64,000 bases of DNA, from positions 208,750 to 272,749 of the forward strand of contig BPJG01000001.1 in the NCBI GenBank assembly GCA_026004495.1. The letters run 5' to 3'. This DNA is from Candidatus Parcubacteria bacterium. GTDB lineage: Bacteria; Patescibacteriota; Minisyncoccia; UBA6257; HR35. The notes under the pieces are model-generated. The model saw only the letters and a list, made by a program, of their open reading frames with translations. It ran no database searches and was not told where the DNA came from. Position 1 is the stretch's first letter, and every line of letters starts with the position of its first letter. Shown here one piece after another: positions 31,038 through 63,919 of this stretch. The position numbers and the translations under genes were made by a program.

Positions 31038-31080
31038 AATTAAATTATAATATATCTTGCTATTTTGATAAAATTAAATT

Positions 31081-32163
31081 ATGAAAGTTTTAATTGTGAT
31101 CACACAAGGAGTAGTCGGAGGAGCGACAAATTCTGTTTATTTTTTAGCAAAAGGCTTAAAAGAAAAAAACATTGATGTTAAAGTTGGTTTTGGCGAAGGA
31201 GAATATTTGAAAGAAAAATTAGAAAAAGAAAATATTCCTTATATAAATTTTAAATGGCTGAAAAGAACCCATAATCCTTTAGCAAATTTATTTTTTATTT
31301 TTGAAATAAAAAGATTTTTAGATAAAAAAAAATTTGATGTTGTTCATTTTAATTCAACCAATGCTTTATTTGGATCTATTGGAGCAAAATTTTCTAAATC
31401 AAAACCAAAAACAATTTTTACTTTTCGCGGACTTTCAATTTTAGATCCTTATTATCAAAAAAATAAAATTTTAAAAACTATTTATTGGTGTATTTTTAAA
31501 TTTTTGCTTTTATTTATTGATGTTCCTGTCTTTGTCTCAAATCATAATTTAGAAATAACCAAAAAAATGAAATTAACTAATAAGGGAGTCGTAATTTATA
31601 ATGGAATTCCTGAGCCAGAATTTTTGGATAAAGAAACCTCAAAAAAATTTTTTGAAGAAAAATTAAAAATACCACTTGCAAATAAATTTATAATTGGATC
31701 AATTGGAAGGTTAGATTATCAAAAAAATTATGAATTTTTAATCCAAATTTTTCCTGAAATTCTAAAAACAAAAGAAAATGCAATTGCTATTATTATTGGC
31801 GAAGGAGAAGAAAGAAAAAAATATGAAAACTTAATTAAAAAACATAATTTACAAGATAAATTCTTTTTAATTGGCGAAATAAAAGATGCTTCAAGATATT
31901 TAAAAGCTTTTGATTCATTTGTTTTACCTTCTCGCTATGAAGGAATGTCAATAACTTTAATTGAAGCCTTATTTGCCCAAATTCCAATTTTAGCATCAGA
32001 TGTTGGAGGAAATAAAGAAATTATAGGAGAAAAATGTATATATGAATTTAATAATCAAAATGAATTTTTAACTAAATCTAAAAATCCCCAAATTCCACCA
32101 AAAGAAAAAATAAATGATTTTGAGATTAAAAACACAATTGATAATTATTTAAAAATTTACTAA
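31081..32163 (+). CDS. Glycosyltransferase family 1 (GT4-type)
   Basis: C-terminal EGMSITLIEALFAQIPILASDVGGNKEII (EX7E-type motif). Confidence 0.75.
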   Translation: MKVLIVITQGVVGGATNSVYFLAKGLKEKNIDVKVGFGEGEYLKEKLEKENIPYINFKWLKRTHNPLANLFFIFEIKRFLDKKKFDVVHFNSTNALFGSIGAKFSKSKPKTIFTFRGLSILDPYYQKNKILKTIYWCIFKFLLLFIDVPVFVSNHNLEITKKMKLTNKGVVIYNGIPEPEFLDKETSKKFFEEKLKIPLANKFIIGSIGRLDYQKNYEFLIQIFPEILKTKENAIAIIIGEGEERKKYENLIKKHNLQDKFFLIGEIKDASRYLKAFDSFVLPSRYEGMSITLIEALFAQIPILASDVGGNKEIIGEKCIYEFNNQNEFLTKSKNPQIPPKEKINDFEIKNTIDNYLKIY

Positions 32164-34043: not shown

Positions 34044-34083
34044 GAATACATTATACTTTTTATTTTTTCAAAATACTTTTTCC

Positions 34084-35280
34084 CTATATTATCTCCTTCC
34101 ATTTTAAAATAATATTTTTAATATCAAAATCTTTTGCTCTTTCAATGCTTAAATTTTTATACTTTTCAACTAAATAATTATTATTTAAAACTTTTTTGAG
34201 TGTTTCGATCCACATTTTTTCTTCGATTGTTAAATCATCTTTATGGTTTAAAAATCTATTTTGAAAAATAGGCATTAAAATTCCATACTGAGCAAATTCT
34301 GGTTCTTTAGTTTGAAAATTAAAATCAGTATCAGGAGCCAAAATCTCTCTTGGACCTGTACGACAATCAGAAGAAACTACCGGAACGCCATAAGCCATTG
34401 TTTCTACTAAAGCATTGGGGAAACCCTCAAATAAACTTGGAAAAATAAAAGCTTTAGAGTGAGCAATAAATTTATAAGGATTATTTTGAAAGCCTAAGAA
34501 ATAGACATCATAATCTTTAGTTAAATCATTTCTATCCCAAACAAAAGTTTTTAAATTAAGTCTTTGAGATAACTCAACTAAATAATTTTTTAATTCTCCT
34601 TCGCCTAAAATCACAAGTTTCAAATTAGGGAATTCTTTTTTAACTTCTTTAAAAATCCTTAATAAATACCATTGACCTTTTTGCTTAGTTAATCTACCTA
34701 CATTAATTAAGACTTCTTTTTGAAAAATAATCTCATATTCATCTAAAGGTTCTTTTATTTTTTCTTGAATTTCATTAAAGAAGATTGGATTATATATTAC
34801 CTTAATTTTTTCGGATGAAATGCTGAATGTTTTTATTAATTCATCTTTTATACCTTCTGAAACTGCTACAATTAAATTTGCTTTAGGATATAAAAATTTC
34901 GAAAGCAAATTATAAGGATGCAATTTAAATCTACCAAAAATTTGAGACATCCGAATTGAAACAATAGTTTTGTGCTTAGTAATTAAAGAAGTTAAAATAT
35001 TAACATAATTGCTTCTCTCTAAAAAAGAAATAATTACATCATCTGGATTAAGATATTTTTTAAGTCTTAAAGAATGAATAGGGATAAATAAAGTTTTCAA
35101 AATAGCATTTGTTTTGTAATTGTGTTTTAATAAAAAAACTACTTTTTCCTTAGGCACTTCATATTTTATATCTTTTTCTAAAAGAAATATTTTGTCAAAA
35201 TCTAAAGTTCGGAATAAATTAAAAGCAACTTTTTCTGCCCCACCGCCATAAAGTGAATTTATTAAAATAAATTTTTTCAT
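34084..35280 (-). CDS. Glycosyltransferase family 1 (GT4-type)
   Basis: EGFPNALVETMAYGVPVVSSD motif; 398 aa. Confidence 0.75.
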   Translation of the reverse strand: MKKFILINSLYGGGAEKVAFNLFRTLDFDKIFLLEKDIKYEVPKEKVVFLLKHNYKTNAILKTLFIPIHSLRLKKYLNPDDVIISFLERSNYVNILTSLITKHKTIVSIRMSQIFGRFKLHPYNLLSKFLYPKANLIVAVSEGIKDELIKTFSISSEKIKVIYNPIFFNEIQEKIKEPLDEYEIIFQKEVLINVGRLTKQKGQWYLLRIFKEVKKEFPNLKLVILGEGELKNYLVELSQRLNLKTFVWDRNDLTKDYDVYFLGFQNNPYKFIAHSKAFIFPSLFEGFPNALVETMAYGVPVVSSDCRTGPREILAPDTDFNFQTKEPEFAQYGILMPIFQNRFLNHKDDLTIEEKMWIETLKKVLNNNYLVEKYKNLSIERAKDFDIKNIILKWKEII

Positions 35281-36227
35281 TTAATTTTACCTTGAAAATA
35301 AATATGAGCACCTTGAATAAAAGGATAAATAAAAAGTGAAATCGGGATTAGAAAAAGGGTCCTAAAAAATTTTAAAGTTTTAATAAGATTATTTTTAAAA
35401 AGCTTATTCTTATTGTTTTTGTTTAAATAAATTTTTTCTCTTAATTTCTTTTTTAAATTAAAAGTATATTTACCAAATAACCAAATTTCTATAAGAGTTG
35501 CGATTTCAGTCAAACTTTTAGTATCGCTAATTTCGACAGAAAATCCCTGATGTTCAAAAAAATTTTTCAAAACCTTTTTAGAAAATCTCAAGAAATGATG
35601 AGGTGGTAAATCTGTTTTGTCATATTTACCTTGATATAAATTAATAAAAACTGACTCTCTATTAGGCACTGTTCCAACAATATAACCCTCTGGTTTTAAT
35701 AATATTTTTATTTGTTCTAAAAATTCTTTAGGTTTATCTTGATGTTCTAAAACTTCAAAAAATGTGATAACATCAAATTTCAAATCTTTTTCTTTAGCCA
35801 AATCAACAAATTCTTCTAAGCTCATCGGAAATACATTTTTTAAACCAAATTTATTTTTTGCCACTTCAATACTTTTTTTATCAAAATCAATGCCCCAGAC
35901 TTCAAATCCTAATTTTTGAGCCTCTTTTATAAAAACTCCATCACCACAACCTATATCTAATAACCTACCTTGATTTAAGAAAAATTTTTTGAAAAATGGG
36001 ATATGCCATTCTTGAATGTTTCTAATACCTGCATGATATAAATCATAAGCAATTTCACCTTCCTCTTCATAAAATTCTGGAATAATTTTTAAAGGCTCCC
36101 ACCATTCTCCGTCGCAATTTAGGCAATGATAAAGTTTATATTCTTGATTATTAAAATCAGAAATATATTTTTCTAAATATTTATCTGAATTTATTTCAAA
36201 ATCACATAATGGACATTTGTATTTCAT
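35277..36227 (-). CDS. Class I SAM-dependent methyltransferase with N-terminal Zn-ribbon
   Basis: CPLC...CLNC cysteines; motif I LLDIGCGDGVF; 316 aa. Confidence 0.7.
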   Translation of the reverse strand: MKYKCPLCDFEINSDKYLEKYISDFNNQEYKLYHCLNCDGEWWEPLKIIPEFYEEEGEIAYDLYHAGIRNIQEWHIPFFKKFFLNQGRLLDIGCGDGVFIKEAQKLGFEVWGIDFDKKSIEVAKNKFGLKNVFPMSLEEFVDLAKEKDLKFDVITFFEVLEHQDKPKEFLEQIKILLKPEGYIVGTVPNRESVFINLYQGKYDKTDLPPHHFLRFSKKVLKNFFEHQGFSVEISDTKSLTEIATLIEIWLFGKYTFNLKKKLREKIYLNKNNKNKLFKNNLIKTLKFFRTLFLIPISLFIYPFIQGAHIYFQGKIK

Positions 36228-37000
36228 TTTTGAAAAAAACTTAATGTTTTATAAGTCATAATTTTTATGATTGTCGAAATTAATTTGAAAGGACAATTTT
36301 TAAATAAATCTTTATAAAAATTTTTAAAAAATAAATAATGAACTGTTGCTAATCTTTTATAGTTTTTACTTTTAACCGATAATCTGTCTTCTAATTTATT
36401 ATTGTAAATTCTTGCAATTTTATTAGAAAAATAAGCTCTATATCCTCTTTTTAGAATTTTAATCCAAGTAATAGCTTCTCCTCCTTTTATGTTTTCTATA
36501 AATTTTTCTTCTAAAAAAACTTCTTTTTTAATTATAGGCAGAGCCTCGCCTTTAATTTTACATATAAAATCTTTATAAGTTAAATAGCCTTCATAATTTT
36601 TAATATTTATAGGTATATTACCATCTAAATCTTTGCAAGCAAAAATAAAAAAAGAAACATCAGGCAATTTTTGGATATAACTATAAATAATTTCTAAAGC
36701 ATCGACTGTTAATTCATCATCTGAATCTAAAAAAATTAACCAATCACCAATCGCTTTTTCTGAGCCAAAATTACGGGCAACATTAGGGCTTGAATTCCTT
36801 TCTAATTTAAAATATTTTATTTTTGATGATTGTTGTAAATATTTCTGCACCACATCCTTAGTATTATCTATTGATCCATCGTCAACAATTATCATTTCCC
36901 AATTATCAAAATTTTGTCTTAAGACACTTTCAATCGATTTATTAATTATGTAAACTCGATTATAAGTAGGGGTAATGATACTAAAAAATGCTCTATTCAT
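36224..37000 (-). CDS. Glycosyltransferase family 2
   Basis: FSIITPTYNR...IIVDDGSIDNT...DSDD (DXD) motifs. Confidence 0.8.
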   Translation of the reverse strand: MNRAFFSIITPTYNRVYIINKSIESVLRQNFDNWEMIIVDDGSIDNTKDVVQKYLQQSSKIKYFKLERNSSPNVARNFGSEKAIGDWLIFLDSDDELTVDALEIIYSYIQKLPDVSFFIFACKDLDGNIPINIKNYEGYLTYKDFICKIKGEALPIIKKEVFLEEKFIENIKGGEAITWIKILKRGYRAYFSNKIARIYNNKLEDRLSVKSKNYKRLATVHYLFFKNFYKDLFKNCPFKLISTIIKIMTYKTLSFFQK

Positions 37001-37917
37001 TATTTTAAAAAAATAAAATTATCAAAACCATTGGTGATCAAAGATAAATCCCCATATTTTTCTTCTAATTCTCCATCTTTAGTAATGAAATAAGATTTAT
37101 AGTTCCAATCTCTTAATAAATTCACTGCTCTCATTGATAATTCACCATTATTATCTTTACCCCATACTTCTAAACAAATCATTGGAGAATTGTTTTTAAG
37201 AAATTTTTCTGCTCCTTTTAAAACTTCGTACTCTGCTCCCTCTACATCAATTTTTAAAAAAGTTGGCAGAGTGTGTTTTTCTTCGTAAATATATTTATCT
37301 AATGTGGTTGAAAATACCTCTTTTATGGTCAAATTTTTAAAATGTAAAATATTTGACTTAATAGAACTTAATCCATATAAATCACCAGGTATGTAAAGTT
37401 TTAGTAAGCCCTCTTTGCCTGATAAAGCAACTTCATTTATAAAAACATTATTTTTATCTTTTAAATTTAATCTTAGGCTTTCTATACATTCTTTTATTGG
37501 CTCAAAACTATGAACTTCTTTACAAAATTCTAAAGCTAAATACGTATAATAGCCAAAATTTGCTCCGATATCATAAAATACATCTTCTGATTTAAGATTT
37601 CTAATTAAAAATTTGGTTAATTTCAATTCATTCGAATCTCTTAAAAATCCAAAATACAACATCGAGCTACTCGAATTTCCTCCTTTCAAAATAATATCTT
37701 TTAATTTCAGAATTTTAATTTTCTTTTTAATTGGAAATAGTCTGAAGATTAAAAAAGAGAAAGTAGAAAAAGGAGAATACAAAAATCTTAATAAGTTTCT
37801 TTTAAAACGAGAAAATAAATCTATTCCCTGCCAGCCTTCTTTATTCCATTCCTGAAAAAACTTTTCAAAATTATCAATTTCTTTTAATAAAAATTTTCTT
37901 TTTTGATCCAAATACAT
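37000..37917 (-). CDS. FkbM-family methyltransferase
   Basis: FYDIGANFGYYTYLA motif; paralog of 38939..39919. Confidence 0.7.
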   Translation of the reverse strand: MYLDQKRKFLLKEIDNFEKFFQEWNKEGWQGIDLFSRFKRNLLRFLYSPFSTFSFLIFRLFPIKKKIKILKLKDIILKGGNSSSSMLYFGFLRDSNELKLTKFLIRNLKSEDVFYDIGANFGYYTYLALEFCKEVHSFEPIKECIESLRLNLKDKNNVFINEVALSGKEGLLKLYIPGDLYGLSSIKSNILHFKNLTIKEVFSTTLDKYIYEEKHTLPTFLKIDVEGAEYEVLKGAEKFLKNNSPMICLEVWGKDNNGELSMRAVNLLRDWNYKSYFITKDGELEEKYGDLSLITNGFDNFIFLK

Positions 37918-37929
37918 TTTTTAATTTTA

Positions 37930-38967
37930 TCAAAAAACATACCACTGAACAAAGTATTTATTTTGAAAATAGCCCTTTTTATCCTTGTAATAATCCCAAT
38001 CTATATTTTTAGAAATTAAAATTAATGGAATATCTCCTAGGGCTGAAGCTAAAATACTAAAACTACTTTGACAACCCAAAATTATACTAGTTTTTGATAA
38101 AAGCCATAAATCTTCTACTGGATTTTTAGTCAATGGCTTATAAATATTAAAACCAGAAAACTTTACTAGATCAACATCGCCATTAGAACAAATAACAAAA
38201 CAAACTTTATCAAGATTAAGGTTTATAAATTTACAAATTTCATTAAATGACTTTATTAATGTTTCGTAATCATTTATAGAAAAATAAAACAAAGGGTCAT
38301 TTTCATATTTCCAATCACCATCTAATAAATGTTCTTTTTGTCTTAAATGAACACCAATTAAATAATCATATTGTGTTCCTAATTCATTGATTATTTCATT
38401 TACTTTATTTATATATTTTTCTTTAGGTTTAAAGAATTCTAAAATCTCTTGGCGATATTTTTTTATACCTTCAGGATTACGAAATAGCCAACCAGAAAAA
38501 TAAATAATTTTTACTTTAGGATCATTCTCTAATTCTAATAGTTTGCCTTCCGATGGTTTTGTCGGTGGTAAAAGATATACATCTAATGGTGACCGAGGAA
38601 TAAGCCCAGCATAAATAAAATTTTTTCCCTTTACTATTTCTAAAATGAAATAAAAAATCAAATAAAGAAGTTTAAAAATTTTTCTGATTATATAAAAGCC
38701 TAATCGTCTTTTTCTAAAATTTAATGGTTCTAATATATCAGAAAAAAAATTAAAGCCTTTATAAAATACTAAGTCAATAAAAAAGTTCTTTATCTTAAAA
38801 TCAAAATATTTTGTATACTCATAAAATTTATAACTATCAAATTCATAGCCTTTCTCTAAGGCATAAGCCAGTAATGAAATATGAACCCAAAGCTGATTAG
38901 CTAATTGAGAATCATTATGTTTAACTAAAATAACTTTTTTACAGACGTGGGGTTTTTGTGAAAACAT
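37930..38967 (-). CDS. Hypothetical protein, possible glycosyltransferase
   Basis: 345 aa ORF inside the glycan cluster; no confident family motif. Confidence 0.4.
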   Translation of the reverse strand: MFSQKPHVCKKVILVKHNDSQLANQLWVHISLLAYALEKGYEFDSYKFYEYTKYFDFKIKNFFIDLVFYKGFNFFSDILEPLNFRKRRLGFYIIRKIFKLLYLIFYFILEIVKGKNFIYAGLIPRSPLDVYLLPPTKPSEGKLLELENDPKVKIIYFSGWLFRNPEGIKKYRQEILEFFKPKEKYINKVNEIINELGTQYDYLIGVHLRQKEHLLDGDWKYENDPLFYFSINDYETLIKSFNEICKFINLNLDKVCFVICSNGDVDLVKFSGFNIYKPLTKNPVEDLWLLSKTSIILGCQSSFSILASALGDIPLILISKNIDWDYYKDKKGYFQNKYFVQWYVF

Positions 38968-39919
38968 AGTTTAAATCATTATATTCCTTTAAATAGATTA
39001 TTTTTTTATCAACCTGTTCTAATTCTCCATCTAGATTAATTTTATAAACAAATTTAAATCCTAAATTTTCTAATATTTCCACTGCTTTATATGAAAGATT
39101 TTCTTTATCGCTCCATACTTCCATAATAATCAGCAAAGAAGATTCTGAACTTTCCAGAAAATTTTTAGCTCCTTTTAAAACTATACTTTCTGCACCTTCA
39201 ACATCTAATTTAATAATAGTAGGAGGATGATGATTTTCTAAATATCTATCTAAAGTTATTGTTTTAATTTTAATCGGTTCTTTTCTAAATATAGCCTTAC
39301 AGCTATCATAGACATTATTTACAATTGTAGAAGCTCCAGTGCCATATTTACCAACATAAATATTTGTATAACCTTCATTATCAGACAATGCGAGATTGTT
39401 TAAAAAACAGTTTGAATCATTAGCTAAATTTTCTTTAATATATTCAAAAATAAATGGGAGGGGTTCAAAAATATGCACTTCTTTACAAAAAATAGAGGCT
39501 AAATAGCTATAATAACCAATGTTTGCTCCGATATCATAAAATATATCTTCTGATTGTAGATTTTTTACTAAAAATTTAGTAAGTTTTATATCGGGTAGAG
39601 ATGGAGGGCATCCAAAATGTATAAGTAATAAGCTACTTAAATCGTCTAAAGGTAACTGGATTTCTTTCATATTAAAAATATGAGTATGTAGGCTTTTATT
39701 TCGTAAAATAAATTTAGGTATAATTCTATTCAAAATATTGATAATTAAGGCAGGTAAATAGAATTGAGGACAATTTAGTAGCTTTAATAATCTGTCTTTA
39801 ATCCTATAACTTCTTAAAGTTACTATCTTTTTTAAACAATCTGTATCTACTTTCTTTTGTAAATAATTTAGAATTAATTTTCTCTTATCTTCTATTTCCA
39901 TGATAAATTTCTCCAACAA
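38939..39919 (-). CDS. FkbM-family methyltransferase (second copy)
   Basis: FYDIGANIGYYSYLASIFCKEVHIFEP, near-identical motif block to 37000..37917. Confidence 0.7.
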   Translation of the reverse strand: MLEKFIMEIEDKRKLILNYLQKKVDTDCLKKIVTLRSYRIKDRLLKLLNCPQFYLPALIINILNRIIPKFILRNKSLHTHIFNMKEIQLPLDDLSSLLLIHFGCPPSLPDIKLTKFLVKNLQSEDIFYDIGANIGYYSYLASIFCKEVHIFEPLPFIFEYIKENLANDSNCFLNNLALSDNEGYTNIYVGKYGTGASTIVNNVYDSCKAIFRKEPIKIKTITLDRYLENHHPPTIIKLDVEGAESIVLKGAKNFLESSESSLLIIMEVWSDKENLSYKAVEILENLGFKFVYKINLDGELEQVDKKIIYLKEYNDLNYVFTKTPRL

Positions 39920-41166
39920 TTAATTATTATTTTATTTTGGGGTAATTTTGATTTTATAATTTTATCTGGCAACATTAGAATTATAAGCTTGTTTTTTATA
40001 GCTGATTCTAGGTTATAAGCATAATCTATATCATTACTAAAAATTTTCTTCGTTTCTTCGGTGGCAAGTTCTATTGGATCATAAACTGTGATTTTGAGGT
40101 TTTTATTTTTCTTTAATAAATATTTTATCAAATTTATCGAAGCTGACTCTTCAATAACATAAGTTTTTGGTTTATAAGCTAAACCGATTATGGTTAAAGA
40201 TTTTAATTTATTTTCTTTTAAGATGCTTAAAATTTTGTCTCCTAAAAATTTTGTCTGAAACTCATTGATTTTATGCGCTGCCATAGGAATTAAGGCATCA
40301 ATTTTAGAAAATCTTTTAGCAAAATTATTGAAAGCTTTATTATCTCGAGGAAAGCAAGGACCGCCATAAGCAGTTCCATATCGAAAATAATAAGGGCCAA
40401 TTCTTTTATCTTTCCCCATCGCTTCAGTAATTTTATCAATTTCAGCACCAGGAATTCTTTCACAAATATTACCAAGCATATTAGCAAAACTAATTCTTGT
40501 TGTAATGTATGAATTAATTGCTATTTTTGTAATTTCAGCGCTAACAATTGACATTCGAGCTATAAATGGATTATTTAAACAAACTTTTTTCCATAAACTT
40601 TCAATAATATCACCTGCTTGTTTATTATTTTCTCCGATTAGAACTAAATCAGGTTCTAAAATTCCTTTGATAATATCTCCAATAGCAATAAAAGTCGGGT
40701 TATAAATAACAGTGAAATCTTGATTAAATTTTTTACCCGATAATTTTTCAATAAAAGGAATTATTTCATTTTGAGTTGAAAGTGGGCTTACAGTTGAAGT
40801 GATAGCAAAAATTTTAAATTGTTTAGCTTGTTTTAGATTGTCAGCTAATTGTTTGATTGCTTTTTTTAAATATTCATTAGAAAAACTTCCGTCTTTATTT
40901 GAAGGAGTTGGTACAATAAAAAAATAAATATCTGAAAAATTAAAAACTTCTTTAGGATCAGTCGTAGCCCTTAGTTTATTTTTAGATTTATCAATTAATC
41001 CTTGCAGGTTTGGTTCTAAAAATGGTGCCTGGTGATTATTTATTTTATTTACAATATTCTCATTAATATCACAACCTAAAACATTAAAACCGCGATAAGC
41101 AAAACAAGTGGCAAAACAACTTCCTAATTTTCCTAAACCGAATACTCCGATATTTTTTACTTTCAT
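39892..41166 (-). CDS. Nucleotide-sugar dehydrogenase (UDP-glucose/GDP-mannose dehydrogenase family), full length
   Basis: N-terminal GxGxxG (IGVFGLGKLGS); catalytic Cys motif GGPCFPRD; 424 aa. Confidence 0.8.
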   Translation of the reverse strand: MKVKNIGVFGLGKLGSCFATCFAYRGFNVLGCDINENIVNKINNHQAPFLEPNLQGLIDKSKNKLRATTDPKEVFNFSDIYFFIVPTPSNKDGSFSNEYLKKAIKQLADNLKQAKQFKIFAITSTVSPLSTQNEIIPFIEKLSGKKFNQDFTVIYNPTFIAIGDIIKGILEPDLVLIGENNKQAGDIIESLWKKVCLNNPFIARMSIVSAEITKIAINSYITTRISFANMLGNICERIPGAEIDKITEAMGKDKRIGPYYFRYGTAYGGPCFPRDNKAFNNFAKRFSKIDALIPMAAHKINEFQTKFLGDKILSILKENKLKSLTIIGLAYKPKTYVIEESASINLIKYLLKKNKNLKITVYDPIELATEETKKIFSNDIDYAYNLESAIKNKLIILMLPDKIIKSKLPQNKIIINCWRNLSWK

Positions 41167-42140
41167 ATTCTTCTTTGTTTTTTAAGTTGCTCTGCGATCC
41201 AGTGATAAGTTTTTTCAATGCCTTGTCTTAAAGAAATTTTTGGTTCCCAGTTTATTTTTTGACGAGCCAAAGTTAAATCTGCATTTCGACCGCGAACTCC
41301 AGTTGGGCCAGAAATGTGTTTTAATTTTAAATTCTTACCAGCAATTTCCATTATCATTTTAGCTAAACTATTAATTGAAATCAATTCTTCTGAGCCAATA
41401 TTAATTGGTCCTAAAAAATCTGAATCCATTAATTTTCTTACGCCCTCTAAAGCATCGTCAATATAAAGAAAACTTCTTGTCTGTTCGCCATCACCCCAAA
41501 TTTCAATTTCCTCTCCATCTTTAGCTAAAGCAACCTTACGACAAAGAGCTGCCGGTGCTTTTTCTCTTCCACCTTCATAAGTACCTTCTGGTCCAAAAAT
41601 ATTATGAAAACGAGCAATACGAACATTAATTCGATAATTTCTATTAAATGCTAAATACATTCTTTCTGAAAAAAGTTTTTCCCAACCATATTCAGAATCA
41701 GGTCCGGCTGGATAAGCATCTGATTCTTTTAATCCCGGATTATTTGGATCTGTTTGCTTATATTCCGGATAAATACAAGCTGATGAAGAATAAAAAACTT
41801 TACCCTTGAATTTTATTTCTTTTAGATAATAAAGACAGTTTAAATTAATTAAAGCTGAATTATGCATAATATCAGCATCATTTTCACCAGTAAAGACAAA
41901 TCCAGCTCCGCCCATATCTGCTGCCAATTGATAAACTTCATCAAAATCTCTATCTAAAATTTTTACCCAAACATTTGGGTCTCTTAAATCCCCAATAACA
42001 AAATCATCAACCTCATCTTTTGCAGAATATTCGGGATATTTTAAATCAACAGATCTAACCCAATAACCTTCATTTTTTAATCGACGAGCAAGATGATGCC
42101 CAATAAAACCACCACCTCCACAAACTAATGCTTTTTTCAT
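41163..42140 (-). CDS. GDP-mannose 3,5-epimerase-like SDR
   Basis: Collinear with plant GME: GGGGFIGHH, LAADMGGAGF (GME LAADMGGMGF), SSACIYPEYKQ, RFHNIFGPEGTYEGGREKAPAALCRK (GME RFHNIYGPFGTWKGGREKAPAAFCRK), IWGDGEQTRSF, GPTGVRGRNAD. Confidence 0.75.
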   Translation of the reverse strand: MKKALVCGGGGFIGHHLARRLKNEGYWVRSVDLKYPEYSAKDEVDDFVIGDLRDPNVWVKILDRDFDEVYQLAADMGGAGFVFTGENDADIMHNSALINLNCLYYLKEIKFKGKVFYSSSACIYPEYKQTDPNNPGLKESDAYPAGPDSEYGWEKLFSERMYLAFNRNYRINVRIARFHNIFGPEGTYEGGREKAPAALCRKVALAKDGEEIEIWGDGEQTRSFLYIDDALEGVRKLMDSDFLGPINIGSEELISINSLAKMIMEIAGKNLKLKHISGPTGVRGRNADLTLARQKINWEPKISLRQGIEKTYHWIAEQLKKQRRI

Positions 42141-42186
42141 AATAAATAAAAAATTAATTTCGGCTCTTATGATAATTATATCATAA

Positions 42187-43014
42187 TTAGCTCTTATTAT
42201 TTAACCAGTCTTGTTGTAATTTTTTAATAAGTTTTTGGTTTTTTAGATATTTATAATTCAATTTCCAGACAAATTGGAAAAGTTCAGGGTTTATTTTTAA
42301 TTTTTTATATAAATATATCAGGGCATTTAAATCTTTAGGTAAACATTTACCACCAAAACCTCGATAACCTTCATAAAAAACTTTAAGATGAGTTTTACCC
42401 AGTCTTGGTTCATTTTCCAAGATTTCTCTTAATTCATCGTAGTTTATTTTTAGTTTTTGGCACAAATCATAAACTTGATTAGCAAAGATAACTTTTAAAG
42501 CTAAGAAATCATTAATTGTCAATTTTGCTAATTCAGAAATTTTTGAGTCAACAATTTTTGTATAAGAGGCTTTAGGCAGAAGTTGAAGAATTTTTTCAGC
42601 TAAATTTTTTGATTTTTGAGTATAGCCGACTAACTGGATAACTGGCTTGACGAAATCTTCATACGGATATTTTTCTCTTAAAAATTCAGGATTATGAAGA
42701 AATTGATGAATTTTATACTTTTTTTGAAAATATTCGATTGTGCCAGGAAGGAGTGTTGATTTAACAATGAATACTTTTGGAGTTTTGAAATATTTAATGT
42801 TTTCTTCTAAGGCTGATAAATCATAACCTGTTTTTGGGCTGTAAGGAGTTGGCAAGCAAAGAAAAATAATTTTTGCTTTATTAACTTCTTCTAAGCTACC
42901 AATATTTTTAAATTTATCATAACCATAAACTTCAAATTTTTCCTTTTTCAGCCAATCAAATAAAGTTTGGCCAACAATACCTAAGCCAATTATTCCAATT
43001 TTTTGTTGTTTCAT
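42187..43014 (-). CDS. Truncated nucleotide-sugar dehydrogenase-family protein (NAD-binding + central domain only)
   Basis: IGIIGLGIVG Rossmann; GGKCLPKD catalytic-Cys motif; 275 aa, no C-terminal UDP/GDP-binding domain. Confidence 0.6.
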   Translation of the reverse strand: MKQQKIGIIGLGIVGQTLFDWLKKEKFEVYGYDKFKNIGSLEEVNKAKIIFLCLPTPYSPKTGYDLSALEENIKYFKTPKVFIVKSTLLPGTIEYFQKKYKIHQFLHNPEFLREKYPYEDFVKPVIQLVGYTQKSKNLAEKILQLLPKASYTKIVDSKISELAKLTINDFLALKVIFANQVYDLCQKLKINYDELREILENEPRLGKTHLKVFYEGYRGFGGKCLPKDLNALIYLYKKLKINPELFQFVWKLNYKYLKNQKLIKKLQQDWLNNKS

Positions 43015-46444: not shown

Positions 46445-46955
46445 TTATTTAACCACAATTTCTCCTGTAAATGATGGGTTTAAATGATCATGATAATACC
46501 ATTCACCAACTTCATTAAAAACAAAAAACCAACTTTCTCCTTTATTTAAACCTCGGCAGACATCAAAAATTTTAGCTTGCTCTGGAGTGCCACATTTTTC
46601 AATACCTGAACTGGGATAAACACGATGAGTTGGATGAACAGCCGATGCTGGCCAAGAAGGTTTAGAAGATTCATTAACCCAAGTAACTTTTGTTCCTTTA
46701 GTTATTTCAACTTCTTTTGGCTCAAAGCCATTATTAGTTATTCTGATAATGACTTCAGAAGTAGTTACTTTGGATGAAGGTGTTTCTGTTGATATTGTCG
46801 GCGTTGTTGGTGTAGAAGGTATTTCTAAAGAAGGTGAGGCTGGAGACCGAGACAATTTTGGCGTTAAAGATGGAGTTCTGTATTTATTAAAAAATAATAA
46901 CCGATTCCTAATAAAAAGGCTAAAATAAATACAGTAGTTATTAAATTCTTTCCAT
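46445..46955 (-). CDS. Cupredoxin-like domain protein, N-terminal signal anchor out of frame (possible pseudogene or assembly indel)
   Basis: Mature domain (FEPKEVEITKGTKVTWVNES...HPTH...C...C...YYHDH) in one frame; upstream ATG (46953..46955) and TM helix (NLITTVFILAFLLGIGYYFL) lie in other frames; breaks at A-run and T6 homopolymers. Confidence 0.45.
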
Positions 46956-47048: not shown

Positions 47049-47666
47049 TTATATGGCCTTTTTATAATTTTCCTCTATTTTTTCCCAATTAACAACATTC
47101 CACCAACTTTGGATATATTCATTTCTGCGATTTTGATATTTTAAATAATAAGCATGTTCCCAAACATCAAGGCCCATAATTGGTAGATCTCCATTCATTA
47201 AAGGATTATCTTGATTTGGCAAAGAATAAACTTTTAATTTTCTATCTGAACTTACCACTAACCAAGCCCAACCAGAACCAAAATGTTTTAATGCTGTTTC
47301 TGAAAATAAATTTTTAAAATTCTCAAAAGAGCCAAAATTTTCTTCAAGCGCCTTTTTTAATTCTCCGATTGGTTCACTTCCACCATTTGGTTTCATTATT
47401 TCCCAAAAGAGTGAATGATTATAATGTCCACCACCATTATTTCTAACAACTGTTCTTATATCCTCAGGAAGTTGGTCTAAATTTTTCAATATTTCTTCAA
47501 GTTCTACATTTTGCCATTCAGGATATTTTTCTAAGGCTGAATTTAAATTATTAATATAAGTCTGATGATGTTTAGTGTGATGAATTTTCATTGTCATCTC
47601 ATCAATGTAAGGCTCTAGGGCATCATAATAGTAAGGCAATTTTGTTAAATTATAAGGATAATTCAT
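47049..47666 (-). CDS. sodA: Fe/Mn-family superoxide dismutase
   Basis: [18 protein letters not shown] metal-ligand motifs; 205 aa. Confidence 0.9.
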
Positions 47667-48096: not shown

Positions 48097-49077
48097 TTAG
48101 GGTGTTGCTAAAGCCTCTTTATCTTTATAAAAAGATGTTCCAATTTTTATTTTTTTATTTGAAATTTTGATATTTTTAATTTTTTCAATTCGAATAAAAG
48201 AAGAAAGGTACCAATTATAATTAGCTTTAGTTTTAATTATTTTACTTATAGGTAATTTTTCTTCAAAAGATTTCCAAGATATTTCATCTTCTACTATTGG
48301 ATAAACACTAAATTTTCTTTTAATATCAGTTATAACAAAACCATTTTTTAAGATAAATTTTTCTATATTAAACCATTTAGCTAAGCTTGACTCGGATGTT
48401 GTTAAGCCGAAATAACCACTACCATTTTTATTTAACGACAAAAATCCTCTTAAAAGAAATAATTTTAATCCTCTCTCGGTTTCAACTGGATCTGTAACAA
48501 ATACATCAAATTTATTAATAAGACTTTTGGGTAATGGTTCTCTAACATCGTATTCTAAAGTTTTAATGTTAAGATTAAGCTTTTTAGATATTTTATTTAT
48601 AAAATCAGTTAATCTTTGATCGATTTCAATTATATATACAGATTGGGGTAATTTTGTTAAAGCTAAGGCAAGACTTAATAGATCGTCATCACCGATAACT
48701 AAAATTTTTGAATTTAATAAATCGCCTCGCTGATAAATAAATTCAACTCTTTTTATAACATCTTCAGCTTTAATAAATGCTTGGTCAAATTTATCTAGTG
48801 CAGGAGGTCTATTTTTTATTATCGTTTTGAATTTAATTAAAATATCATTAAATAAGCCATCTATAATCAATCCTCTGCCCTCGCATATAGAACAATTTAA
48901 ATCATTAATTTTTTTAATAATATTTATTTTATTTTTATTTATCTTTAATTTAGATTTACTTTTATTAATTTCTAAAAATTTTAATAAATGAGCATCGTTT
49001 TCCTCAATAAGATTCCAAATGCTTTTATTTTTATTACTAATTAAACTTTGAATTAATTGTTTTTGAAATCTATTCAT
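48097..49077 (-). CDS. DUF43-family protein (BpsA-like aminopropyltransferase/methyltransferase fold)
   Basis: 326 aa; conserved GDDDL(L/T)S motif (KILVIGDDDLLSLALAL) recalled for BpsA/DUF43; Rossmann-like layout. Confidence 0.4.
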   Translation of the reverse strand: MNRFQKQLIQSLISNKNKSIWNLIEENDAHLLKFLEINKSKSKLKINKNKINIIKKINDLNCSICEGRGLIIDGLFNDILIKFKTIIKNRPPALDKFDQAFIKAEDVIKRVEFIYQRGDLLNSKILVIGDDDLLSLALALTKLPQSVYIIEIDQRLTDFINKISKKLNLNIKTLEYDVREPLPKSLINKFDVFVTDPVETERGLKLFLLRGFLSLNKNGSGYFGLTTSESSLAKWFNIEKFILKNGFVITDIKRKFSVYPIVEDEISWKSFEEKLPISKIIKTKANYNWYLSSFIRIEKIKNIKISNKKIKIGTSFYKDKEALATP

Positions 49078-50215: not shown

Positions 50216-51430
50216 ATGAAAAGTAGGAGAGCACAAATTACATCTCAATTAGAAATAATCAAAAAAAATACCGAAAAAATAATTACCGAAAAAGAACTAG
50301 AAGAAAGGATAAAATTATCAATTGAAAAAAATAAACCATTAAGAGTTAAATTAGGAATTGATCCAACTGCCCAAGATATTCACTTGGGCTTTGTTTTGGT
50401 TTTGAAGAAATTAAGAGATTTTCAACAATTGGGCCATAAAGTTATTTTAGTAATTGGTGATTTCACGGCTAAAATTGGTGATCCAACTGGTAGAAATATA
50501 TCTCGGCCACCATTATCAGATAAAGAAATAAAAACAAATATGAAATCTTATTTTAAACAAATATTTAAAGTAATAGATAGTAAAAATTTAGAAGTAAGAT
50601 ATAATTCAGAATGGTTGACTAAATTAAATTTTAAAGATATTATAGAAATTTTTTCAAAAATAACACTACAAAAAATTACTGAACGAGAAGATTTTCAAAA
50701 AAGATTAAGGGAAAATAATCCTATTTTTTTGAATGAAATAATATATCCTATACTTCAGGCCTATGATAGCCTTTACCTCAAATCTGATATTGAAATTGGT
50801 GGAGTTGACCAAGAACTAAATTGCTTAATGGGACGAGAATTACAGCAAAAATTTAATCAGCAACCACAAATTATCATTCTTATGCCACTTTTAATTGGTT
50901 TAGATGGGAAAAATAAAATGAGTAAAAGTTTAAAAAATTATATTGGCATAAGTGAACCACCAGATGAAATATTTGGCAAAGTAATGAGTATTCCCGATTC
51001 TCTTCTTAATCAATGGCTCAATTTAACTACCAACCTAACAGATCAGGAAATAAAAAAATTATTAACTAAACATCCAATGGAAATTAAAAAAGAATTGGGC
51101 CATGAAATTATTAAACAATATTATAATGAAAATAAGGCAAAATTGGCTGCTAAAAAATTTGAAGCTACATTTCAAAGAAAAGATTACTCTTCTTTAGCAA
51201 AGGAGGTAGTGATACCAAAGGAAATAATAGATATGCCATTAGCTGAAGTATTAGTTAATTTAAATTTCGTCAATTCAAAATCAGAGGCAAAGCGATTAAT
51301 TCAGCAAGGTGGTATTGAAATTAATGGTCAAAAAATAATATCTGATGATCCAAAATTTGTGATGAATATAAATGATGGCGATCTTATAAGAATAGGTAAA
51401 AAGAAATTTTTTAAATTAATTAAAGATTAA
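50216..51430 (+). CDS. tyrS: Tyrosyl-tRNA synthetase
   Basis: GIDPTAQDIHLGF (HIGH-like), KMSKS (KMSKSLKN), C-terminal S4 domain; 404 aa. Confidence 0.88.
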   Translation: MKSRRAQITSQLEIIKKNTEKIITEKELEERIKLSIEKNKPLRVKLGIDPTAQDIHLGFVLVLKKLRDFQQLGHKVILVIGDFTAKIGDPTGRNISRPPLSDKEIKTNMKSYFKQIFKVIDSKNLEVRYNSEWLTKLNFKDIIEIFSKITLQKITEREDFQKRLRENNPIFLNEIIYPILQAYDSLYLKSDIEIGGVDQELNCLMGRELQQKFNQQPQIIILMPLLIGLDGKNKMSKSLKNYIGISEPPDEIFGKVMSIPDSLLNQWLNLTTNLTDQEIKKLLTKHPMEIKKELGHEIIKQYYNENKAKLAAKKFEATFQRKDYSSLAKEVVIPKEIIDMPLAEVLVNLNFVNSKSEAKRLIQQGGIEINGQKIISDDPKFVMNINDGDLIRIGKKKFFKLIKD

Positions 51431-51431: not shown

Positions 51432-52202
51432 TTATTGATCGCCTTTTAGACCAAAATTATTTAAAGCTAAGCTTAGATCTCTATCATCTACAATCCCATC
51501 TAGGTTAAGGTCTGGCCTTTCAGTTGTTGAAGTTGAATAATTCCAATCTTGATTATGATTAAATAATATAGTTAAAACATCAGCATCGTCAACTAAATCA
51601 TTACCATCAACATCACCTGCTTTAAAAGTAATTTCTTGGGGATTATTTTGTGAAGTACTAGTTAAATTAGTTCGTAAATTAAGCCAATGTCTAACTTGTA
51701 ATAACACAGATGGATTATTGCAGTCATTAGAAATTGTTATTTGAGTAATATCATAAGAATAAACATTTCTACCTCTAATTCCACCTCTTAATTGATTATC
51801 ACAGTATAAATTACCATCTAAGTATTGGGGCGGAACTGAGGTGGCTCTTTCTCTTTCAATTCCTTCTAAAATTACCCTTAAATAATAAATAGAGCTAGAT
51901 GAATTTCCTCCAGCCACTTCAAAATCGCCATCGTTATAATCACTTTGATTATTGGAAATATTTTGTTGATTTTCTTCATTAAAGTTTTCACTTATATTTT
52001 CTCTATCTTGGGTGTAAATAAATTCATTACTTTGATTAATTATTTGATTACTAATATTATTATTTTCATTAATTAAATTGTTTAAATTATTATTAAAATT
52101 ATTATTATTAAAATTATTGTGAGTTATATTATTGACTACATTATTATTTGAAACAAGACTCGACAATAAAATAAGCAAGGCTATTATTAGCTGTGAATTC
52201 AT
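51432..52202 (-). CDS. Secreted N/Q-rich protein with C-terminal dockerin-like repeat pair
   Basis: Signal peptide; poly-N low complexity; dockerin type I-like Ca-binding repeats GDVDGNDLVDDADVLTILFN and DLNLDGIVDDRDLSLALNNFG. Confidence 0.6.
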   Translation of the reverse strand: MNSQLIIALLILLSSLVSNNNVVNNITHNNFNNNNFNNNLNNLINENNNISNQIINQSNEFIYTQDRENISENFNEENQQNISNNQSDYNDGDFEVAGGNSSSSIYYLRVILEGIERERATSVPPQYLDGNLYCDNQLRGGIRGRNVYSYDITQITISNDCNNPSVLLQVRHWLNLRTNLTSTSQNNPQEITFKAGDVDGNDLVDDADVLTILFNHNQDWNYSTSTTERPDLNLDGIVDDRDLSLALNNFGLKGDQ

Positions 52203-52419
52203 TTAAGTTGACTTAAATTTTAATCAAACACTTTGTTGATTAAAATTAAAAAATTTTATTTTACTTATTTTAAATATTATTTAATATTATAACATAATTA
52301 ACAATAATTAAAGATATTTAAAATTTAATTTGACTTTATAGAATAAATTATATAAAATTTAATATATTTTAATATATTAAAATTTAGTCGTAATTAAATA
52401 AAAATTTAAAAATAATAAA

Positions 52420-53586
52420 ATGGACTTATCTACCTTTGCAACATTGTTATTACTTTTATTTAACTTTTTACAAGCTACTCAGCAAATTAACATAGAACAA
52501 ACGCAAATTGAACAACCGCAAATTGAACAATCGCAAATTCCTCAGCAAATTAACATAAATCAACAAAATAATCAAGGAGGTAGTATTTTCCCAGCTGGAG
52601 GAGGAAATATATCTTCTACGGGAACAAATTATATTTATGTAATTGAACCATATATATTAGGTCCAACCGAAAATACTGGACTTGATTTGTCTCAGTTAAG
52701 AAATACACCCCTTAATTTAGAAGCAAATTATTACTGTTTAAATGGCTATCAGGGTTATATAAATAAAAATAATATTTATCTCTATAGAACTGAAACCTTA
52801 AGTGTTAATTGTCCTAACCCCTGGGTAGAGTTAAGATTAAATGGTTTTCTTTCTCGATATGTAAGATTAAAAAATTCTTCTACAATTGATCCTCAAGGAA
52901 TTGAATTTGTTTTAGGAGATACTAATAAAGACAATATAATAGATGATGCAGATTTGTTAAAAATATTATTTAGTCTTGATACAAGTATAGATGATTCTAA
53001 GTATGATCCTACAGCAGATTTGGACCAAAATGGAAAAATAACTCAGGATGAGCTATCTTGGCTTCAAAGATTTTTTGGTTATAAGGGAGAAACAAAGCCT
53101 TCCTTCTCTATTGAACCAATTTATTATTTAAGGCTAAATTTAGATGGCGTGGGTAATACAATTAATAGAGATATAAATATTAATTATCGCTGGCAGTGCG
53201 AAAATAGAAGGCTAGAAGGAAATGAAAATGGTTTAATTAACATTAGAACAAATTCTTATGTTTTTAATTTTAATTATTCTTCACTTAATTTATATGATTG
53301 TTATAGGCCAACAATACATTTTAGTGGATCTCCTTTCCTTCTTACCGAGGATAAGATATTATCTTCTATGGATCCCAATAATCCTGATAATATAACTTTA
53401 ATAAATGGCGATATAGATGGTAATAGTATTATCGATGATGCTGATCTTTTAAAGGTTTTATTCAATTATGGGAATAATAATGATGATGCCTTAGAAGCTG
53501 ATATAAATTTTGATGGTATGGTTAATGACGAAGATTTAGAAATAATAAGAAGAAATTTTGGCAAAGGAGTTTTGGGAAGAGGATAA
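52420..53586 (+). CDS. Secreted Q-rich protein with two dockerin-like repeat pairs
   Basis: Signal peptide; QIEQPQIEQSQ repeats; GDTNKDNIIDDADLLKILFS / DLDQNGKITQDELSWLQRFFG and GDIDGNSIIDDADLLKVLFN / DINFDGMVNDEDLEIIRRNFG; shares YYLR..L.G block with the divergent neighbour. Confidence 0.6.
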   Translation: MDLSTFATLLLLLFNFLQATQQINIEQTQIEQPQIEQSQIPQQININQQNNQGGSIFPAGGGNISSTGTNYIYVIEPYILGPTENTGLDLSQLRNTPLNLEANYYCLNGYQGYINKNNIYLYRTETLSVNCPNPWVELRLNGFLSRYVRLKNSSTIDPQGIEFVLGDTNKDNIIDDADLLKILFSLDTSIDDSKYDPTADLDQNGKITQDELSWLQRFFGYKGETKPSFSIEPIYYLRLNLDGVGNTINRDININYRWQCENRRLEGNENGLINIRTNSYVFNFNYSSLNLYDCYRPTIHFSGSPFLLTEDKILSSMDPNNPDNITLINGDIDGNSIIDDADLLKVLFNYGNNNDDALEADINFDGMVNDEDLEIIRRNFGKGVLGRG

Positions 53587-55512: not shown

Positions 55513-55917
55513 TTAATCAAGAATAAAAATTCTTAAGTTTTGTAGGTTTTGATTATTTTTCTCTACCTGAAAATTAAATCTTAATTCAAATGGTTGATTT
55601 ATAAACTTGCTAACAATATTACCAGAAATATTTCTGCTTTCAGGATTAATTTCATTTAAGCTAAAAAAAGAGTTTATATCATTAATAATAAAAGATTTAT
55701 TTGTTGGTTGTAAATAATCATTTAAAAAAATTTCTTGAAGTGCCATATTAAGAATTGATAATTGTGAATATAGTAATCGTGCATTACTAACAATAGATTT
55801 AGAAAAATTATTTTCTTTAACTAAAATTATCCCAAATAGAATTAAAATGCTAAAACTTAATAAAAAAATAACAATTATAAAAACGAATGTTGCTTGACCT
55901 TTATTTAAAAACTCCAT
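55513..55917 (-). CDS. Small pilin-like membrane protein
   Basis: 134 aa; N-terminal KGQATFVFIIVIFLL hydrophobic segment after Gly; last of three consecutive small N-terminally hydrophobic genes. Confidence 0.4.
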   Translation of the reverse strand: MEFLNKGQATFVFIIVIFLLSFSILILFGIILVKENNFSKSIVSNARLLYSQLSILNMALQEIFLNDYLQPTNKSFIINDINSFFSLNEINPESRNISGNIVSKFINQPFELRFNFQVEKNNQNLQNLRIFILD

Positions 55918-56366
55918 AAATATAAAGTAGATGTTAAATTTAATGTTTGATTATTATTTGAATTTGATATCTTAATAAAAACATTATAAAAATCTGAATT
56001 AGATGAAACATCAAAATTATTAACTTTAATATTATCAGAGGTAAATTTTGTCGAAGTTACTTCATTTTCTAAATAAATTTTTTCATTTAATAGATATAAT
56101 TTTTCATAACCTTCAGGATAAAAATTAAATTTTATACTACTTGAAGTTATTTCTGTTGAAATGGCTGAAATTGAATTAAAATAAAGTCTATTTATAATTC
56201 TAAAAACATCATTTCTTAAATTTAGTTTATCCAAATATATAGAAGAATAAAATGTTATACCATAAAAAATTATCGTTGTCAAAACACCCAAAATACTAAT
56301 TATTGAAATATAAATAATTAATTCTATTAAAGTAAAAGATTTATTGTGATAATTCAATTTGGCCAT
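55905..56366 (-). CDS. Pseudopilin (type IV pilin-like), start trimmed to internal Met
   Basis: MAKLNYHNKSFTLIELIIYISIISILG: prepilin-type motif (xFTLIEL with Glu at +5). Confidence 0.55.
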   Translation of the reverse strand: MAKLNYHNKSFTLIELIIYISIISILGVLTTIIFYGITFYSSIYLDKLNLRNDVFRIINRLYFNSISAISTEITSSSIKFNFYPEGYEKLYLLNEKIYLENEVTSTKFTSDNIKVNNFDVSSNSDFYNVFIKISNSNNNQTLNLTSTLYLWSF

Positions 56367-56856
56367 TAATTTTAATATTCTCAGATTTATTATTGTATTG
56401 ATTAATAATTCCACTTGAGGCGTCGACAATGCTATCGGTAGCCACCTCCCAACTATCTTGAATAAAAATCAACTCCTTAATATTTGTAATTTTCAAAGGA
56501 AAGCTATAAATATCTTTAGATGTTTGAATATAAACATTTAAGCTATCATCAGTTATTTCAAACCAACGGTAATAACCATTAAGATAATTATCTTTACCGA
56601 CTTTAATTTCATAATTATTATCAAAATAATAGGGTTGATTTTTTAATAAATTTTCAAATTGTGAATAATTTTTCCTTGCTATACCTAAAACAATACTTTG
56701 ATAAGATAAGGCTGAATTATAAATAATAATAGATTTATCAGCATTTTCAATTGATTGGGGAATTATATTAAAAATTAAAAATATTATCAAAGAAAGAAAA
56801 GATAAGATAAGAATACCTGTTAAAACTTCAAGTAATAATTGTCCATTATTTTGCAT
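56341..56856 (-). CDS. Pseudopilin (type IV pilin-like)
   Basis: MQNNGQLLLEVLTGILIL: Gly then hydrophobic helix with Glu at +5. Confidence 0.55.
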   Translation of the reverse strand: MQNNGQLLLEVLTGILILSFLSLIIFLIFNIIPQSIENADKSIIIYNSALSYQSIVLGIARKNYSQFENLLKNQPYYFDNNYEIKVGKDNYLNGYYRWFEITDDSLNVYIQTSKDIYSFPLKITNIKELIFIQDSWEVATDSIVDASSGIINQYNNKSENIKINGQIELSQ

Positions 56857-63412: not shown

Positions 63413-63919
63413 TTAAGAAATTAAAATATATTTCTTAAATTCTTCTAAATTGTAAAAATAATCAGCTAATTCTTTTAATTTTATTGATGTATTTTTAGAA
63501 AAACCAGCAATCTCAATAATATTACCCTGATTTTTAAGATATTCCACTAAGGGAACAAAATCTCCATCTCCAGTAACTAAAATAATTGTATCTGCAAATC
63601 TAGATATTCTAATGGCATCAACGGTAATACCTACATCCCAGTCAGCCTTTTTTTCGCCATCTGGCAGATGTATCATTTCTTTAATCCTTAATTCAATTCC
63701 TTTTTGAATTAATGTCTCAAAAAAAGAAATTTCTTTAGGGCTAAGATTAGATTTAACAACATAAGCTATAGCTCGAATTAAACTCCTTTCTCCTGTTAAT
63801 AATTTCACAAGGTTGGCGAAATCTATTTTTTTATTATAGAAATTTCTTGCTGAATGATATATGTTTTGAGTGTCAATAAATATAGCCACCCGTTGATTTT
63901 GATAATGAAGAGGGTTCAT
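63413..63919 (-). CDS. NYN-domain (LabA-like, PIN-related) protein
   Basis: VAIFIDTQN...ILVTGDGDF motif pattern of NYN domains; 168 aa. Confidence 0.7.
   Translation of the reverse strand: MNPLHYQNQRVAIFIDTQNIYHSARNFYNKKIDFANLVKLLTGERSLIRAIAYVVKSNLSPKEISFFETLIQKGIELRIKEMIHLPDGEKKADWDVGITVDAIRISRFADTIILVTGDGDFVPLVEYLKNQGNIIEIAGFSKNTSIKLKELADYFYNLEEFKKYILIS

Follow-up and report, generated by a model that had tools for sequence, protein, structure and literature searches.

Two adjacent genes, here called P1 and P2, lie back to back in a 64-kb stretch of the genome mg094 (hereafter the window; G+C content about 26%), which was recovered from 52 °C Katase hot-spring sediment and belongs to the Patescibacteria by classification (PMC9671151). 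Both open reading frames (ORFs) are found exactly where the original prediction, an earlier reading of the bare DNA, had placed a divergently transcribed pair of secreted proteins with dockerin repeats, and a 217-bp AT-rich spacer separates them. An exact-sequence look-up identified P1 as GIW65730.1 (KatS3mg094_249) and P2 as GIW65731.1 (KatS3mg094_250), both annotated as 'hypothetical protein' and lying on a 634-kb contig of a metagenome-assembled Candidatus Parcubacteria genome. The two genes are divergent paralogues, with BLASTP aligning P1 to either half of P2 (E 6e-21 and 2e-20), and their repeat unit of about 160 residues consists of a beta-rich module of about 100 amino acids (aa) followed by a dockerin-like module of about 60 aa (Table 1). 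The P1 gene is convergent with tyrS (50216-51430). A promoter and terminator scan of the spacer returned matches no commoner than in shuffled sequence. Spurious ORFs were considered and ruled out, as the genes are kept in at least five related genomes with their cysteines and Ca ligands invariant.

Searching the six-frame translation of the whole window with a relaxed Ca-loop pattern, D.[DN].[DN]..[IVLM][DNTS]..[DE], returned six matches, all of them in the two proteins (P1 residues 197 and 231; P2 residues 167, 200, 331 and 361). Composition-preserving shuffles, for comparison, gave a mean of 0.02 and 0.014 matches per protein. The six loops form three pairs, one in P1 and two in P2 as had been anticipated, and the within-pair spacing of 30-34 residues is that of dockerins. 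Each of them has the canonical 12-residue form of a dockerin loop, defined by Asp or Asn at positions 1, 3, 5 and 9 and Asp or Glu at position 12 in two tandem segments of about 22 residues, and the structural models place a helix after each of them, reproducing the dockerin fold. The repeat pattern as literally written at the outset, with Gly at loop position 6, describes the second loop of each pair but not the first, which has D, N or S there instead.

Profile searches led to the same family. The Pfam model Dockerin_1 (PF00404; gathering cutoff 22.9 bits), whose use had been suggested with the original prediction, matched P2 above its cutoff in two stretches (24.9 bits, E 2.4e-5), whereas P1 scored 15.8 bits, with profile positions 1-51 of 57 aligned; the dockerin regions of P1 and P2 are homologous (E 1e-20). 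Among the relatives described below, P0078 (30.7 bits) and P0079 (25.4 bits) passed, the L006 orthologue stayed below the cutoff (20.6 bits), and P0080 gave no match to this model. When a family profile of five units was searched against all PDB sequences, dockerins led at E 3e-8 to 1e-4 (2y3n_B, 3e-8; the X-module-dockerin (XDoc) chain of CipA, 2b59_B, 4.5e-7; 5k39_B, 2.8e-5), while calmodulin appeared at about 7e-3 or weaker, five orders of magnitude behind the best dockerins. The sole NCBIfam match on the two proteins was CelK, in the dockerin region. EF-hand models of Pfam scored 8-17 bits against cutoffs of 25-30, and the thrombospondin type 3 repeat (TSP_3) was not listed in the Pfam scan of P1 and P2 at E≤10. 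The outcome named in advance as telling against the prediction, generic EF-hand or thrombospondin repeats in place of dockerins, thus did not materialize. Because solved dockerins rank first in the PDB profile search and no such generic repeat took their place, the modules of both proteins can be identified, from sequence, as dockerins, and this well-supported domain assignment is solid enough for re-annotating both hypothetical proteins.

The beta module in front of each dockerin matched no family in Pfam or NCBIfam. Its YYLR..L.G core, already spotted in the bare sequence, is real, conserved in relatives and forms the first strand, and two cysteines are invariant in all copies and relatives. 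An AlphaFold2 model of P1 residues 95-256 (built on a five-row alignment, coordinates not inspected) reached a predicted local distance difference test score (pLDDT) of 84.4 and a predicted template modelling (TM) score of 0.77, and comprises seven strands followed by the two dockerin helices. Foldseek returned type II XDoc chains from C. thermocellum or A. cellulolyticus as the ten best matches to this model (E 1e-6 to 1e-4, TM score 0.55-0.65), and the entire modelled dyad superposes on XDoc dyads of this type. For full-length P2 the model is of low quality (pLDDT 54.6); it shows the pattern of seven strands and two helices twice, and a fold search with it also placed XDoc chains first, lending weak support. 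In the PDB profile search, alignments to XDoc chains begin at profile position 89, in the last strand, with the exception of 5k39_B, which aligns from position 57.

The published XDoc has 164 residues, split into a 98-aa seven-stranded X module and a 66-aa dockerin with two F-hands; the X module resembles the immunoglobulin (Ig)-like domain of carboxypeptidase D, stabilizes the dockerin and can touch the cohesin, and the dyad as a whole attaches scaffoldins to type II cohesins on the cell surface (PMC5141474). Because of the P1 model, the Foldseek ranking and dimensions matching those of the published XDoc, the unit of P1 and P2 is best described as a putative XDoc-like dyad and not as a bare type I dockerin. 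The label 'type I-like' originally given to the repeats is accordingly replaced: the unit is a beta-sandwich plus a dockerin, and its model comes closest to type II XDoc dyads.

Table 1. Genes, modules and Ca loops of the P1-P2 locus, in window coordinates
Feature	Position	Strand	Basis
Gene P1, 256 aa: hydrophobic N-terminus, N-rich linker, one X-like module plus dockerin	51432..52202	-	ORF list, BLASTP, exact look-up
P1 residues 1-18, hydrophobic N-terminal segment MNSQLIIALLILLSSLVS, signal peptide or signal anchor, no basic n-region	52149..52202	-	Sequence reading
P1 residues 19-100, Asn-rich low-complexity linker	51903..52148	-	Composition
P1 residues 101-195, X-like beta-sandwich, seven modelled strands, two invariant Cys, starts at IYYLRVILEG strand	51618..51902	-	Alignment, AlphaFold2, Foldseek
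P1 residues 196-256, dockerin	51435..51617	-	Pfam, model, PDB profile search, Ca-loop pattern
P1 Ca loops, residues 197-208 and 231-242, helix after each	51579-51614 and 51477-51512	-	Pattern, model
Divergent intergenic region, 217 bp, AT-rich	52203..52419	.	Sequence
Gene P2, 388 aa: hydrophobic N-terminus, Q/N-rich linker, two tandem X-like module plus dockerin units	52420..53586	+	ORF list, BLASTP, model, exact look-up
P2 residues 1-20, hydrophobic N-terminal segment MDLSTFATLLLLLFNFLQAT, helix modelled at 3-17	52420..52479	+	Sequence, model
P2 residues 21-67, Gln/Asn-rich linker with QIEQ repeat, disordered in model	52480..52620	+	Sequence, model
P2 residues 68-165, first X-like beta module, pLDDT about 75-85 in full-length model	52621..52914	+	Alignment, model
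P2 residues 166-225, first dockerin; best Pfam Dockerin_1 stretch, residues 165-218	52915..53094	+	Pfam, pattern
P2 first-dockerin Ca loops, residues 167-178 and 200-211	52918-52953 and 53017-53052	+	Pattern
P2 residues 230-329, second X-like beta module, starts with PIYYLRLNLDG	53107..53406	+	Alignment, model
P2 residues 330-388, second dockerin	53407..53583	+	Pfam, pattern
P2 second-dockerin Ca loops, residues 331-342 and 361-372	53410-53445 and 53500-53535	+	Pattern

Both proteins start with a hydrophobic segment of 13-15 residues, followed by a small residue and N or Q. The N- or Q-rich low-complexity regions reported for them at the outset were found in both, and the P2 model is disordered at residues 18-67. 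Of the signal peptides that had been predicted, the hydrophobic segment stood, with a modelled helix in it, but the n-region contains neither Lys nor Arg, and the segment may be either a cleaved signal peptide or an uncleaved membrane anchor. Together, the hydrophobic N-terminus, the conserved cysteine pair and the Ca-dependent fold point to a location outside the cell, and we infer that P1 and P2 are exported or membrane-tethered.

The family is small. An exhaustive HMMER search with a profile of the five beta-module copies recovered only five proteins among 1.84 billion cluster representatives, one of them P2 itself; all five have a hydrophobic N-terminus, an N/Q-rich linker and one or two units, and every cluster with a named source is patescibacterial. 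The five relatives recovered comprise P0002 (361 aa), P0078 (357 aa), P0079 (386 aa, labelled 'Patescibacteria group bacterium' at NCBI) and the L006 protein (379 aa), each with two dyads, and P0080 (212 aa, from the sister genome KatS3mg095), with one. In patescibacterial orthologues of the same architecture, the cysteine pair and the Ca ligands are invariant. The two-dyad gene and tyrS converge at loci L002-L004, L005 and L006, just as P1 and tyrS do in the window, and at L005 and L006 the two-dyad gene directly follows a gene for a YkuD/M23 cell-wall enzyme. All four relatives whose gene neighbourhood was read have the family gene beside tyrS. P1 shares 51-69% identity with the first dyad of the two-dyad orthologues, to which it is orthologous; the second dyad of P2 (P2b) groups loosely with their second dyads (34-38%), and the first (P2a) is the most divergent copy. 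From these dyad identities, the window lineage therefore holds a one-dyad orthologue and a fast-evolving two-dyad paralogue.

Wider searches mostly picked up dockerins. A scan in which each GTDB species was represented by a single genome turned up only one full-length member of the family, the match at the remaining 22 loci being mainly to the dockerin part, and a search with a dockerin-only profile returned only 24 short fragment proteins. A profile-profile comparison between the beta module of this family and the beta regions that precede dockerins in other proteins of the Candidate Phyla Radiation (CPR) showed no similarity (probability 0.3%), so that sequence gives no grounds for proposing a wider 'CPR XDoc family'.

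We then considered what the dockerins might bind. The Pfam scan for partners took in all window ORFs of 90 aa or more, apart from 63413-63919 and the genes CofD, tyrS and RNase J flanking P1 and P2, and it found no Cohesin (PF00963) or SLH domain at E≤0.01, in line with the earlier remark that no cohesin is visible in the window. Four surface proteins searched against PDB sequences yielded no more than fn3, titin and pilin-type matches or nothing relevant, and ten further ORFs flanking the L006 orthologue contained no cohesin. This negative result applies to the window and does not extend to the other ~570 kb of the genome. Outside P1 and P2 the 64-kb window contains no dockerin; within them, Pfam detected no cohesin or other domain and no carbohydrate-binding family, and PADLOC defence models gave no match. 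The giant pilin-fusion proteins proposed as anchors were tried as cohesin carriers and rejected, since neither Pfam, whose scan took in both, nor PDB sequence searches gave a cohesin signal and they showed only fn3 domains and pilin leaders. Both have a type IV pilin N-terminal methylation leader; the 1940-aa protein (14245-20067, minus strand) adds five fn3 domains, and the 1080-aa protein (11006-14248, minus strand) is otherwise unannotated. Three small pilin-like ORFs just past RNase J (55513-56856, minus strand; N_methyl match in 55905-56429) likewise gave no cohesin signal.

These searches bear directly on the cellulosome-like surface assembly that the original prediction had envisaged. 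A cellulosome combines a cohesin scaffoldin with several dockerin-tagged enzymes, and neither the scanned window ORFs nor the L006 flanks hold such a set; the scans of the window showed no cohesin and no enzyme-borne dockerin. Nor do P1 and P2 resemble the XDoc end of a scaffoldin in this respect, as they contain no cohesin themselves and the scanned window ORFs contain no Cohesin or SLH domain. The cellulosome-like reading of the pair is unsupported.

We instead propose, with a probability of roughly 55%, that neither P1 nor P2 is catalytic, that both are exported or tethered to the surface, and that their only folded parts are one and two XDoc-like dyads, respectively, carried on a flexible Asn/Gln-rich stalk. 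The dyads would fold with Ca2+, the X-like sandwich bracing the dockerin as the X module does, and with Ca2+ the dockerin would bind a cohesin or cohesin-like receptor encoded outside the window. In that case P1 would act as a plug of single valency, and P2 and the two-dyad orthologues, being bivalent, could connect two molecules that bear such receptors, whether both belong to the envelope or pili of the cell itself or one of them to a cell other than the symbiont. If this is true, such free-standing, Ca-dependent, high-affinity plugs, one of them bivalent, could serve as bait for their receptor in the organism or its community. How ultra-small, host-dependent CPR/Patescibacteria build their envelope and attach to cells is poorly understood, and an interpretable fold is available for very few of their surface proteins.

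Several observations weigh against this proposal. P1 stays below the Dockerin_1 cutoff, and sequence searches detect no similarity between the X-like module and known X modules. The X-like structure of the module comes from one AlphaFold model made from a five-row alignment, and AlphaFold may have reproduced the XDoc arrangement from its training data. The lack of Lys and Arg in the n-regions contrasts with two other exported proteins of the window, whose signal peptides are of the classical MKK... form. Finally, no cohesin was detected in the scanned window ORFs or around the L006 orthologue, and cohesin binding is not guaranteed because many organisms carry dockerins without cohesins.

The main alternative, which we regard as unlikely, is that the dockerin fold acts here without any cohesin; the dyads would then be stabilized by Ca2+ and serve in adhesion or as structural modules, with glycans, peptidoglycan or another component of the cell or host surface as their ligand. 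Besides the undetected cohesin, the YkuD/M23 cell-wall enzyme gene directly before the family gene in two relatives fits such a role, but that neighbour is absent from the window. There are precedents, too: an essential dockerin-domain envelope protein of the saccharibacterium Southlakia was read, speculatively, as targeting host glycans (PMC10633639), and non-cellulosomal dockerin arrays of Omnitrophota have been proposed as adhesins (PMC10066038). On the other hand, experiments have established no function for the dockerin fold, and for XDoc in particular, other than cohesin binding (PMC5141474), and no carbohydrate-binding family was detected in P1 or P2.

Far more doubtful is a second alternative, in which the P1 and P2 dockerins are host-docking plugs that mimic the C-terminal dockerins of co-occurring Fimbriimonadales (Armatimonadota) and attach to a cohesin-type surface display of that host. 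It arose from the sequence comparisons: the P1 and P2b dockerins are 48-59% identical to protease-borne dockerins of hot-spring Fimbriimonadales, including some from the Katase project, which exceeds the identity between P1 and P2b, and share only 29-33% with other CPR dockerins and 24-34% with clostridial ones. Armatimonadota account for about half of the loci that the scan of GTDB species matched in the dockerin only, and Fimbriimonadia genomes were obtained from the same Katase sediment sample (PMC9671151). However, exact-word and pattern prefilters bias the searches that gave these matches, both sets may simply lie near the dockerin consensus, and the likeness is confined to helix 1, with helix 3 being different. 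Moreover, no cohesin is known for Fimbriimonadales and no host association for this Parcubacterium. The Fimbriimonadales likeness could thus reflect transfer or mimicry, and it could equally come from the search prefilters and a shared closeness to the consensus. It is just as improbable, in our estimate, that the monovalent and bivalent XDoc proteins serve as attachment hardware of an episymbiont, whether by dockerin mimicry into a Fimbriimonadales display or by bridging receptors of host and symbiont.

Independently of P1 and P2, the hot-spring Fimbriimonadales/Armatimonadota sequences (P0003-P0076; L007-L013, L015-L017, L019 and L020) carry near-consensus C-terminal dockerins (…DDADLLxVLFNFGxGC). 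Matrixin and S8 proteases bear them, as do many unannotated proteins; they are mostly unflagged by precomputed Pfam annotation, and may represent an undescribed non-cellulosomal dockerin system in that phylum.

That the repeats are generic EF-hand- or thrombospondin-like Ca loops, or chance motifs in Asp/Asn-rich low-complexity sequence, is scarcely credible: both proteins are indeed very rich in Asn and Asp, weak EF-hand matches touch one P2 loop (E 0.008-3) and calmodulin enters the PDB profile list at E of about 7e-3, but EF-hand models stay far below their cutoffs while P2 passes Dockerin_1, TSP_3 is unlisted, solved dockerins lead calmodulin by five orders of magnitude, same-composition shuffles almost never yield the motif, and both the 30-34-residue loop-helix spacing and the modelled fold are those of dockerins.

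The remainder of the window yielded several observations on other genes. An alanyl-tRNA synthetase ORF (6618-7892, minus strand) has only 424 aa, comprising the catalytic core (Pfam tRNA-synt_2c positions 1-426 of 552), and may be truncated or split; a 500-aa transmembrane ORF with no Pfam match (5116-6618, minus strand) abuts it downstream. The methionyl-tRNA synthetase ORF (20190-21632, plus strand) has a listed TTG start that overlaps tRNA-Glu (20127-20198), and its true start is therefore probably further downstream. An unusually long nucleoside diphosphate kinase ORF of 221 aa (27029-27694, minus strand) is matched by Pfam NDK in two stretches. Three cupredoxin-like exported proteins are encoded in this reduced Parcubacteria genome (24850-25485, plus strand; 28529-30097 and 46445-46855, minus strand), the first passing the Cupredoxin_1 and Copper-bind cutoffs and the other two falling just below. 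An Fe/Mn superoxide dismutase (47049-47666, minus strand) lies beside a BpsA-like branched-chain polyamine synthase (48097-49077, minus strand), a thermophile-associated trait that fits the 52 °C source. A large cluster for surface-glycan biosynthesis (30141-43014) contains GT4 and GT2 glycosyltransferases, two FkbM-type methyltransferases, an asparagine-synthase-like enzyme, epimerases and two UDP-glucose dehydrogenase ORFs, of which 42187-43014 (275 aa) looks truncated. Finally, an 811-aa VirD4/TraG-like coupling ATPase of type IV secretion is encoded at 1225-3660 (minus strand).

Among known systems, Ig-like domains of the transthyretin-like and carboxypeptidase-D regulatory type and CnaB-type pilin domains score far below the full XDoc dyad, and P1 and P2 have no Pfam CarboxypepD_reg or Cna_B match and no isopeptide or sortase features. 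Non-cellulosomal dockerins are a second point of comparison and are widespread; those of CPR/Patescibacteria, Omnitrophota and Fimbriimonadales resemble P1 and P2 in having Dockerin_1 (PF00404) in organisms without a cellulosome, the Fimbriimonadales ones being closest in sequence, but they usually form a C-terminal tag on a larger protein with a protease, PAN or other domain. Within the CPR, Cys-rich or PAN-domain secreted proteins from one unclassified patescibacterium (L028 7877-10246 and 10356-11705) and one member of the Roizmanbacteria (L022 1520-2833) end in a beta-rich region followed by a Dockerin_1 above cutoff, an arrangement superficially like the dyad, although the beta part has no detectable homology to the module of P1 and P2, in agreement with the profile-profile comparison. 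Cohesin- and dockerin-domain genes have also been reported as expressed in one member of the Shapirobacterales of the CPR (PMC9123182). Because of the L028 and L022 proteins and the Shapirobacterales report, a dockerin in a CPR organism is not new, and the novelty implied by the original prediction shrinks, dockerins and in one case cohesins having already been reported in the CPR (PMC10633639, PMC9123182).

What does appear new, in the literature that we searched, is a tiny, Parcubacteria-restricted family built from XDoc-like dyads alone, the duplication of that dyad in tandem, and an XDoc-like arrangement outside cellulolytic Firmicutes. The closest known counterpart is the XDoc of clostridial scaffoldins, namely CipA/ScaA and CipB of C. 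thermocellum and ScaA of A. cellulolyticus (PDB 2b59, 3kcp, 5g5d, 5k39, 5m0y and 4wi0). It differs from P1 and P2 in its X part, to which theirs has no detectable sequence homology and where theirs carries a conserved cysteine pair, and in its setting: the dyads of P1 and P2 make up the entire protein, duplicated in tandem in P2 and the orthologues, rather than terminating a scaffoldin that bears cohesins; their surroundings lack cohesins, SLH anchors and glycoside hydrolases; and the organism encoding them is a reduced, probably symbiotic Parcubacterium, not a cellulolytic Firmicute. In common with P1 and P2, it is a unit of about 160 residues in which a seven-stranded Ig-like sandwich of about 100 aa is joined directly to a two-loop dockerin, the dockerin sequences align at E 4.5e-7 to 4e-5 and, in our reading of the sequences, the pair of dockerin helices shows the asymmetry of type II dockerins. 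To our knowledge, the X-module-dockerin dyad has so far been seen only as the cell-anchoring end of clostridial scaffoldins, and the finding would widen it beyond cellulolytic Firmicutes.

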